Source: Escherichia coli (GTDB taxonomy: Bacteria > Pseudomonadota > Gammaproteobacteria > Enterobacterales > Enterobacteriaceae). Taken from it: a stretch of DNA of 1,159 bases. Below, piece by piece: positions 1 through 413 of this stretch (positions are counted from its first letter, which is position 1; every line of letters starts with the position of its first letter). The position numbers and the translations under genes were made by a program. Under the pieces are notes generated by a model. The model was given only the letters and a program-made list of their open reading frames with translations. It ran no database searches and was not told where the DNA came from. The DNA lies in the NCBI RefSeq assembly GCF_003334385.1, contig NZ_QOWN01000124.1, one strand, 5' to 3'.

Positions 1-413
1 TACGCCCGCCAGAGTCCGCCCTGGTGTGTGGCATACGTGCCCCGGGGAAAGGATTTTTGATCGTCAATGGCGGGGAGTATTTCCAGTGCCGTGGCATCAC
101 GCCCGTCCTGCGGAGCCGGCAGGGCACTCACCGCATCCAGAACCGCCTTCTGCAGAACATCCGGATCGTAGTCACGACCGTCGCGCGGAACAGGAATATG
201 GCTTACCGCCTCCTTCACCATCTGCTCAAGCATCGGACGCATATCATCGCCCGTCACGCACTTCTGTAATACCACAGACAGGGACGCCAGTTTTTCTTCA
301 AACGTTTGTGCCTGCGCGGCTATTTTCCCCTCAAATGTGCGCTGTAAATCCGCCAGCACTGCGGAAAATTCTTCACCCAGCGCACGGATAATGGACAGTT
401 CACGTTCATTCAT
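1..413 (-). CDS. Phage head-morphogenesis gene of unknown function, 5' portion (3' end lies beyond position 1); candidate scaffold or assembly protein, translationally coupled to portal
   Basis: The minus-strand frame whose codons occupy 3-5 ... 411-413 has no TTA, CTA or TCA on the plus strand anywhere in 1..409, so it is open for 137 codons to the window edge; the other two minus frames hold 5 and 9 stops. The first start is ATG at 413..411, preceded in frame by a stop at 452..450. Translation begins MNERELSIIRALGEEFSAVLADLQRTFEGKIAAQAQTFEEKLASLSVVLQK and ends ...GTYATHQGGLWRA. Composition is protein-like. Function is inferred only from position after the portal gene. Confidence 0.7.
   Translation of the reverse strand, partial: MNERELSIIRALGEEFSAVLADLQRTFEGKIAAQAQTFEEKLASLSVVLQKCVTGDDMRPMLEQMVKEAVSHIPVPRDGRDYDPDVLQKAVLDAVSALPAPQDGRDATALEILPAIDDQKSFPRGTYATHQGGLWRA

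Follow-up and report, generated by a model that had tools for sequence, protein, structure and literature searches.

The window, by which we mean the whole 1,159-nt stretch of Escherichia coli DNA analysed here, carries on its minus strand the 3' part of a phage portal gene followed by the 5' part of a second gene, referred to as ORF2. The stop codon of the first and the start codon of the second share four nucleotides. The features at this locus are the following:

1..413, minus strand: 5' part of ORF2, 137 codons, apparently encoding a fibre-like protein; runs off the window at position 1 and matches phrog_8767, phrog_1289 and phrog_2271.
320..409, minus strand: 29-codon ORF in the portal frame, starting from a second ATG at 409..407; not a gene, its substitution pattern not being coding-like.
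410..413, minus strand: ATGA stop/start overlap, in which ATG 413..411 is the ORF2 start and TGA 412..410 the portal stop.
410..1159, minus strand: 3' part of the portal gene, 249 codons plus stop, HK97 family; runs off the window at 1159 and matches portal PHROGs.
413..418, minus strand: A6 run formed by the two C-terminal Lys codons of the portal plus the first base of the ATG; haplotype-specific and not conserved in relatives.
424..430, minus strand: Shine-Dalgarno (SD)-like AGGGGGA within the portal coding sequence (Arg-Gly codons), 11 nt 5' of the ORF2 ATG, with a predicted anti-SD duplex.
450..452, minus strand: TGA closing the ORF2 frame 12 codons 5' of the ATG, read directly from the sequence.

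In the portal frame the minus strand ends in ...ATG TTC AGG GGG ATT CTG AAA AAA TGA, which gives the peptide end M F R G I L K K followed by the stop. One base back from this frame, the codons ATG AAT GAA CGT GAA CTG... open ORF2, whose peptide begins with MNERELSIIRALGEEF... This ATG is the first start codon past the TGA at 452..450, as no ATG, GTG or TTG occurs in the ORF2 frame between that TGA and the ATG at 413, and it is followed by at least 137 stop-free codons up to the window edge. The chance of a 137-codon open frame in random sequence is about 0.0014. An earlier note on this DNA had placed the ATGA shared by portal stop and ORF2 start at 413..410 on the minus strand, AGGGGGA at 430..424 inside the portal coding sequence, and ORF2 methionines at residues 58, 61 and 65 (M58, M61 and M65), and the sequence agrees on each of these points. 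It had also described the second ATG at 409..407 as lying in the portal frame with a stop at 322..320, which is correct, and as opening 28 codons, where the count is 29 aa, a trivial difference. The junction is an ordinary member of a very common gene-junction class, and an A preceding a TGA stop is in itself not rare; judged from the sequence, it is the long open frame, the SD-like tract and the overlap shared across genera that make the junction meaningful.

The portal fragment in the window matched phrog_2271/phrog_12 'portal protein' with an E value of 4.9e-170. Its membership in the HK97 family of portal proteins (TIGR01537 / PF04860) was established through a full-length relative, ORF58 of phage BP-4795 (454 aa), which matched positions 2-343 of the 343 positions of the TIGR01537 portal_HK97 model with 351.7 bits, the curated cut-off being 112.05 bits. 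Since ORF58 covers the full model, the portal gene (ORF1) is a complete portal without ORF2. The surrounding genes follow the order TerL, S78 protease-major capsid fusion, small ORF, portal, ORF2, gp6-like connector, head closure protein, gp10-like protein, gp17 tail completion protein, tail tube protein and tail chaperone, and TAC and Phage_tail_T genes are present in the same module. The conserved order of this head-morphogenesis module is comparative evidence in support of the proposal that portal and ORF2 belong to one operon, and within the module ATGA is the usual junction (four of seven junctions in BP-4795, three of eight in Klebsiella). DNA of this type is widespread: identity of the window to E. 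coli prophages of the lambdoid and Stx types is 91-99%, there are matches in 92 phage records, and of the 5,426 complete E. coli genomes 1,246 contain window-like DNA, with a median of 3 places in each and 6,835 E. coli places in all.

Stand-alone homologues of ORF2 range from 245 to 569 aa in E. coli, and those of Klebsiella and Pantoea have 402 aa. A clustered-representative search returned 5,702 representatives of the ORF2 family, nearly all of stand-alone size; among the best 150 of these 5,702 almost all were 210-690 aa long, and 465 representatives matched at E <= 1e-30. The middle of ORF2 consists of a 162-nt (54-aa) tandem repeat, present in 4.6 copies with 95% identity in ORF59 of BP-4795 (L003 3912-4663) and as a single unit in the window (roughly 248..87, minus strand). 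Since the repeat copy number varies among relatives, ORF2 lengths form the series 245, 299, 353, 407, 461, 515 and 569 codons; a second series of 271, 325 and 379 is offset by 26 codons. The window is colinear with the form found in phage Lys8385Vzw, whose ORF2 has 245 codons.

In an AlphaFold model of ORF2 (mean pLDDT 62.6), residues 3-50 form a long N-terminal helix, which is followed by helix-loop-helix repeat units and, at the C-terminus, a beta-domain. The window part takes in this helix, a single 54-aa unit of the repeat and the first portion of the beta-rich C-terminal domain. Pfam yielded a weak CBM_5_12 match (E 0.006) and nothing else, and searches against NCBIfam and PDB sequences gave no useful match. 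The last approximately 50 residues were the only region with consistent fold matches, namely to chitin-binding CBM5/12 modules and to phage fibre proteins. This CBM5/12-like module lies outside the window (L002 3747-4484, residues about 190-235), and the Foldseek probabilities of 1.0 refer to short alignments. Because of this C-terminus, together with the long N-terminal helix and the spacer of variable repeats, ORF2 looks like a fibre-like structural protein encoded beside the portal gene, as far as the model and the fold matches can tell.

For comparison of the junction we assembled 84 sequences, consisting of the window, 3 annotated records and 80 IMG/VR loci. The two ORFs were split in 69 of the 84, and in 69 of these 69 the portal stop was the TGA of ATGA; ORF2 was intact in nearly all of the split loci. 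In Klebsiella and Pantoea the ORF2 homologues are 62-67% identical and stand alone in a syntenic module, with the portal ending at 4004 and ORF2 starting at 4001, that is in the same ATGA. Conservation of ATGA in related phages, which the earlier note had put forward as a check, was therefore borne out for all 69 split E. coli-type loci, Klebsiella and Pantoea. Three distant ORF2 relatives with 43-47% identity to ORF2 were examined as well. L093 has ATGA with a 4-nt overlap (GCA TGA / ATG AAC) directly after a Pfam-confirmed 445-aa portal, L091 an 8-nt overlap directly after a Pfam-confirmed 445-aa portal, and L092 an 8-nt overlap after an upstream ORF that is cut by the contig end and is without a Pfam record. 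Relatives at 41-47% ORF2 identity thus keep 4- or 8-nt overlaps rather than always ATGA. Because Klebsiella, Pantoea and the distant relatives are split, the split form is ancestral and fusions of the two ORFs are derived. The split form is also carried by Lys8385Vzw, a phage that was induced and sequenced and was seen by TEM as a complete long-tailed siphovirus particle (PMC7946995). Portal and ORF2 are two real, separate genes with a conserved overlap. Taken together, the comparisons mark the split form as ancestral and functional and call for ORF2 to be annotated as a gene of its own.

The remaining 15 of the 84 loci (about 18%) are fused, and each of the 15 carries G6 instead of G5 at the SD-like tract (window 429..425, minus strand). 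The extra G brings the portal into frame with ORF2 five codons 5' of the ATG (...MFRGDTEKMTERELS...), and the resulting fused ORF comprises about 815-930 codons (for example in L009, L034 and L088-L090). G6 also occurs in phage YYZ-2008, whose 'portal' is 861 aa long, in vB_EcoS-705R7 and in E. coli 88-3493, the last being annotated by PGAP with an intact portal. The G6 loci are spread over at least 4-5 flank clusters, and since some G6 flanks are identical to G5 flanks, the change from G5 to G6 is either recurrent or very recent. The window's own junction haplotype was absent from all 15 fused loci. An A7 run was also considered as the cause of fusion and rejected, every fusion being due to G6; megablast searches of the junction with an 81-nt (A6) and an 82-nt (A7) query, limited by a 28-nt word requirement, returned 8 phage records. 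A portal-ORF2 fusion in a different, distant lineage was found in P0200 (1,237 aa; protein only), with a full TIGR01537 portal domain at residues 46-385 and an ORF2-like domain at residues 1054-1233; its C-terminus is 44% identical to ORF2.

The start of ORF2 was delimited by the relatives. In Klebsiella the ORF2 frame reads AGC TAA ATG AAT, with a stop directly 5' of the ATG, and ORF2 must therefore initiate at that ATG. Across the first 17 codons of ORF2 the window and Klebsiella differ 2, 0 and 8 times at codon positions 1, 2 and 3, corresponding to 8 synonymous and 1 nonsynonymous changes; for Pantoea the ratio of synonymous to nonsynonymous changes is 7:3, and for Lys8385Vzw it is 5:2. 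If this DNA is instead translated in the portal frame, the comparison with Klebsiella yields 3 synonymous and 31 nonsynonymous changes. This synonymous bias implies that the ORF2 frame is under purifying selection from codon 2. Both the Klebsiella TAA and the synonymous bias uphold the view that ORF2 starts at the ATG within ATGA and not at 409..407.

The G tract is predicted to pair with the 16S anti-SD at -9.4 kcal/mol, which places it in the top 1% of the 9-mers of the window and makes it one of three sites of that strength on this strand. Internal starts at M58, M61 and M65 were rejected as lacking an SD, since anti-SD pairing in the 20 nt 5' of these codons reaches -2.4 to -2.9 kcal/mol versus -9.4 kcal/mol at the G tract. 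The spacer between SD and ATG measures 11 nt, which is above optimal. In Klebsiella the SD is weak (-5.9 kcal/mol), and the distant relatives range from -3.9 to -7.0 kcal/mol. Since the Arg-Gly codons of the portal C-terminus are conserved, part of the purine conservation of the SD-like tract may reflect coding. The two further strong anti-SD sites lie within coding sequence, one in the ORF2 repeat (217..206, minus strand, GAAGGAGGCG, -11.7 kcal/mol) and one in the portal gene (617..605, minus strand, GCGGGAGGTGA, -11.6 kcal/mol). No suitably spaced in-frame start codon was found at either, and these sites may be translational pause sites or due to chance.

The junction joins separate portal and ORF2 genes and ORF2 starts at the ATGA, which we consider likely to happen by termination-reinitiation. 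In the proposed course of events, portal and ORF2 would be co-transcribed from the minus strand within the siphophage head module, and a ribosome ending portal translation at the UGA would remain on the mRNA, its retention being favoured by base-pairing between the 3' end of 16S rRNA and AGGGGG 11 nt upstream, and would restart one base back on the AUG of ORF2. As a consequence of the restart on the overlapping AUG, ORF2 output would track portal output, and in a minority of relatives the G5 to G6 insertion would hard-wire this link by protein fusion. The arrangement has the hallmarks of a coupled pair, namely a 4-nt co-directional overlap, two ORFs that are both genuine coding genes and an SD motif inside the upstream gene. 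Of five native E. coli pairs with a 4-nt overlap that have been assayed, four were coupled by termination-reinitiation, and removal of the SD lowered reinitiation in four of the five, while one pair, bioBF, initiates de novo (Huber et al. 2019, PMC6728339). By analogy with such pairs, we infer that ORF2 translation depends on portal translation, with the products in a fixed ratio.

The likeness extends to the architecture. [quoted passage not shown] Unlike those pairs, portal and ORF2 are phage structural genes with a long SD spacer (11 nt), for which coupling is what we infer from comparison, and their SD tract doubles as a site of ORF-fusing indels.

The strongest competing explanation, which we regard as clearly less probable, is that free 30S subunits initiate ORF2 de novo at its own SD (AGGGGG) and ATG, the overlap reflecting compact gene packing. 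The strength of the SD-like tract (-9.4 kcal/mol) speaks for this, as does the precedent of E. coli bioBF and chloroplast atpB-atpE, which are ATGA pairs with independent initiation, and no significant RNA structure occluding the start was detected: folding of the junction gave z = -1.46, and 17 of 200 shuffles folded equally well. Efficient initiation of this kind is hard to reconcile with the overlap being kept in distant relatives despite their weak SDs (-3.9 to -7.0 kcal/mol), which speaks in favour of termination-reinitiation; the suboptimal 11-nt spacer and the coupling of four of the five tested E. coli pairs (PMC6728339) point in the same direction. Nevertheless, the long spacer, an SD partly constrained by Arg-Gly codons, the weak SDs in relatives and the lack of a detectable start-blocking RNA structure count against coupling and call for some caution in accepting termination-reinitiation.

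The recurrent natural fusions have a bearing on what the two products do. They hint that the fibre-like ORF2 works together with the portal, and they make a fixed or near-equal (roughly 1:1) portal:ORF2 stoichiometry plausible. It is doubtful, though conceivable, that the G5 tract serves both as an SD and as a recurrent indel switch, and/or that G5 genomes undergo low-level -1 slippage at A-AAA-UGA. If the switch were real, G5 would yield a plain portal and a free fibre-like protein and G6 a fibre-like protein on the C-terminus of each portal subunit, which would make virion architecture in lambdoid and Stx prophages subject to a heritable toggle resembling phase variation; if slippage were real, a few fusion subunits would anchor ORF2 to the portal. 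In solved portal structures the portal C-terminus lies inside the capsid, and a fibre-like ORF2 fits uneasily with fusion to that end.

A programmed -1 frameshift at A AAA UGA or at the A6 run, stimulated by the SD-like element and giving some portal-ORF2 fusion beside plain portal, appears very unlikely. The position of ORF2 in the -1 frame, an A6 run that ends at the stop and an SD-like element upstream would all suit it, in E. coli-type loci no stop interrupts the -1 frame for 12-16 codons upstream, and the existence of genomic G6 fusions suggests that a fusion protein is tolerated. However, the G AAA AAA of the window is no canonical X XXY YYZ heptamer, relatives do not keep the A run (they read G AGA AAA, G CGA AAA or A GCT AAA), and the distant junctions are without a slippery sequence. 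The -1 frame is closed by TAA directly before the ATG in Klebsiella and by a TGA four codons upstream in L092, and downstream structure was not significant (z = -1.46). An Rfam search of the junction gave no match at E <= 1.

E. coli dnaX (A AAA AAG) and Bacillus subtilis cdd (CGA AAG near the stop) undergo -1 frameshifting with upstream SD-like stimulation. They share with the portal/ORF2 junction an SD-like element 5' of an A-rich Lys codon near the stop and a downstream frame in -1, whereas the portal/ORF2 junction lacks a conserved slippery heptamer, shows no significant stimulatory structure and, in Klebsiella, has a closed -1 frame; any likeness is probably superficial. The tail assembly chaperone genes G/GT use programmed frameshifting at a conserved slippery site, T being without an independent start. 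Here too overlapping phage structural ORFs, with products possibly in a fixed ratio, are sometimes merged by annotators, whereas ORF2 has its own conserved ATG and a -1 frame that is closed upstream. SPP1 gp7 and Mu gpF, of the MuF family (PF04233), are portal-adjacent minor head proteins, and MuF may carry variable C-terminal domains. The ORF2 gene likewise follows the portal gene directly, with a product that is presumably portal-associated; unlike MuF, this product shows no sequence similarity to this family in Pfam and combines 54-aa tandem repeats with a CBM5/12-like C-terminal module typical of fibres.

Public annotation of the locus is contradictory. The BP-4795 and Lys8385Vzw records give two genes with a 4-nt overlap, whereas PGAP labels all three split RefSeq copies inspected, from O157:H7 PV15-279, O55:H7 DEC5B and 2013C-4225, as 'phage portal protein, frameshifted', and the Stx2a_F349 record reads 'portal protein (pseudogene)'. 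The single frameshifted or pseudogene portal annotations span 2386-4645 in L001, 886-3146 in L095, 886-3146 in L096 and 886-3470 in L097. Both phrog_2271 and phrog_21454 match each of the two ORFs. It would seem to be fused reference proteins that lead PGAP to call the split copies frameshifted pseudogenes, and the label is probably wrong. That the locus is a frameshift-inactivated pseudogene of one long portal gene (about 700-930 aa) in a decaying prophage, as these labels, the intact fused ORFs and the PHROGs spanning both parts might suggest, is improbable in the extreme, given that the split form is the majority state (69/84) and, being that of Klebsiella, Pantoea and the distant relatives, hence ancestral, that ORF1 alone covers the whole portal model, that the split loci nearly all have an intact ORF2, whose codons from the second onwards are under purifying selection, and that BP-4795 and Lys8385Vzw were deposited as phages in the split form, the latter forming complete particles. 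In the literature on BP-4795 and its portal, on the Stx portal frameshift, on YYZ-2008 and on vB_EcoS-705R7 we found no discussion of the junction and no virion proteomics.

The main practical value of the analysis is therefore in annotation, the textbook-style ATGA junction itself being of little weight. A 'frameshifted' label can make prophage-integrity tools score functional prophages, Stx-converting ones included, as defective. Two by-products are the SD-like G5 tract as a recurrent site of fusing indels and the probable mislabelling of the ancestral split arrangement in RefSeq.

Naming of ORF2 is similarly uneven: the same protein of Klebsiella/Pantoea (L084-L087, 4001-5209) is publicly named in three ways, as 'phage portal protein', 'phage gp6-like head-tail connector protein' and 'Carbohydrate binding domain', and none of these names stems from a curated family match. 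At the other end of the portal gene, the portal as annotated in BP-4795 and relatives begins within the small ORF (73 aa) that precedes it, the two sharing 55 nt (L003 2219-2440 and 2386-3750), and in Klebsiella small ORF and portal overlap by 1 nt. It may be that the E. coli records place the portal start too far upstream.
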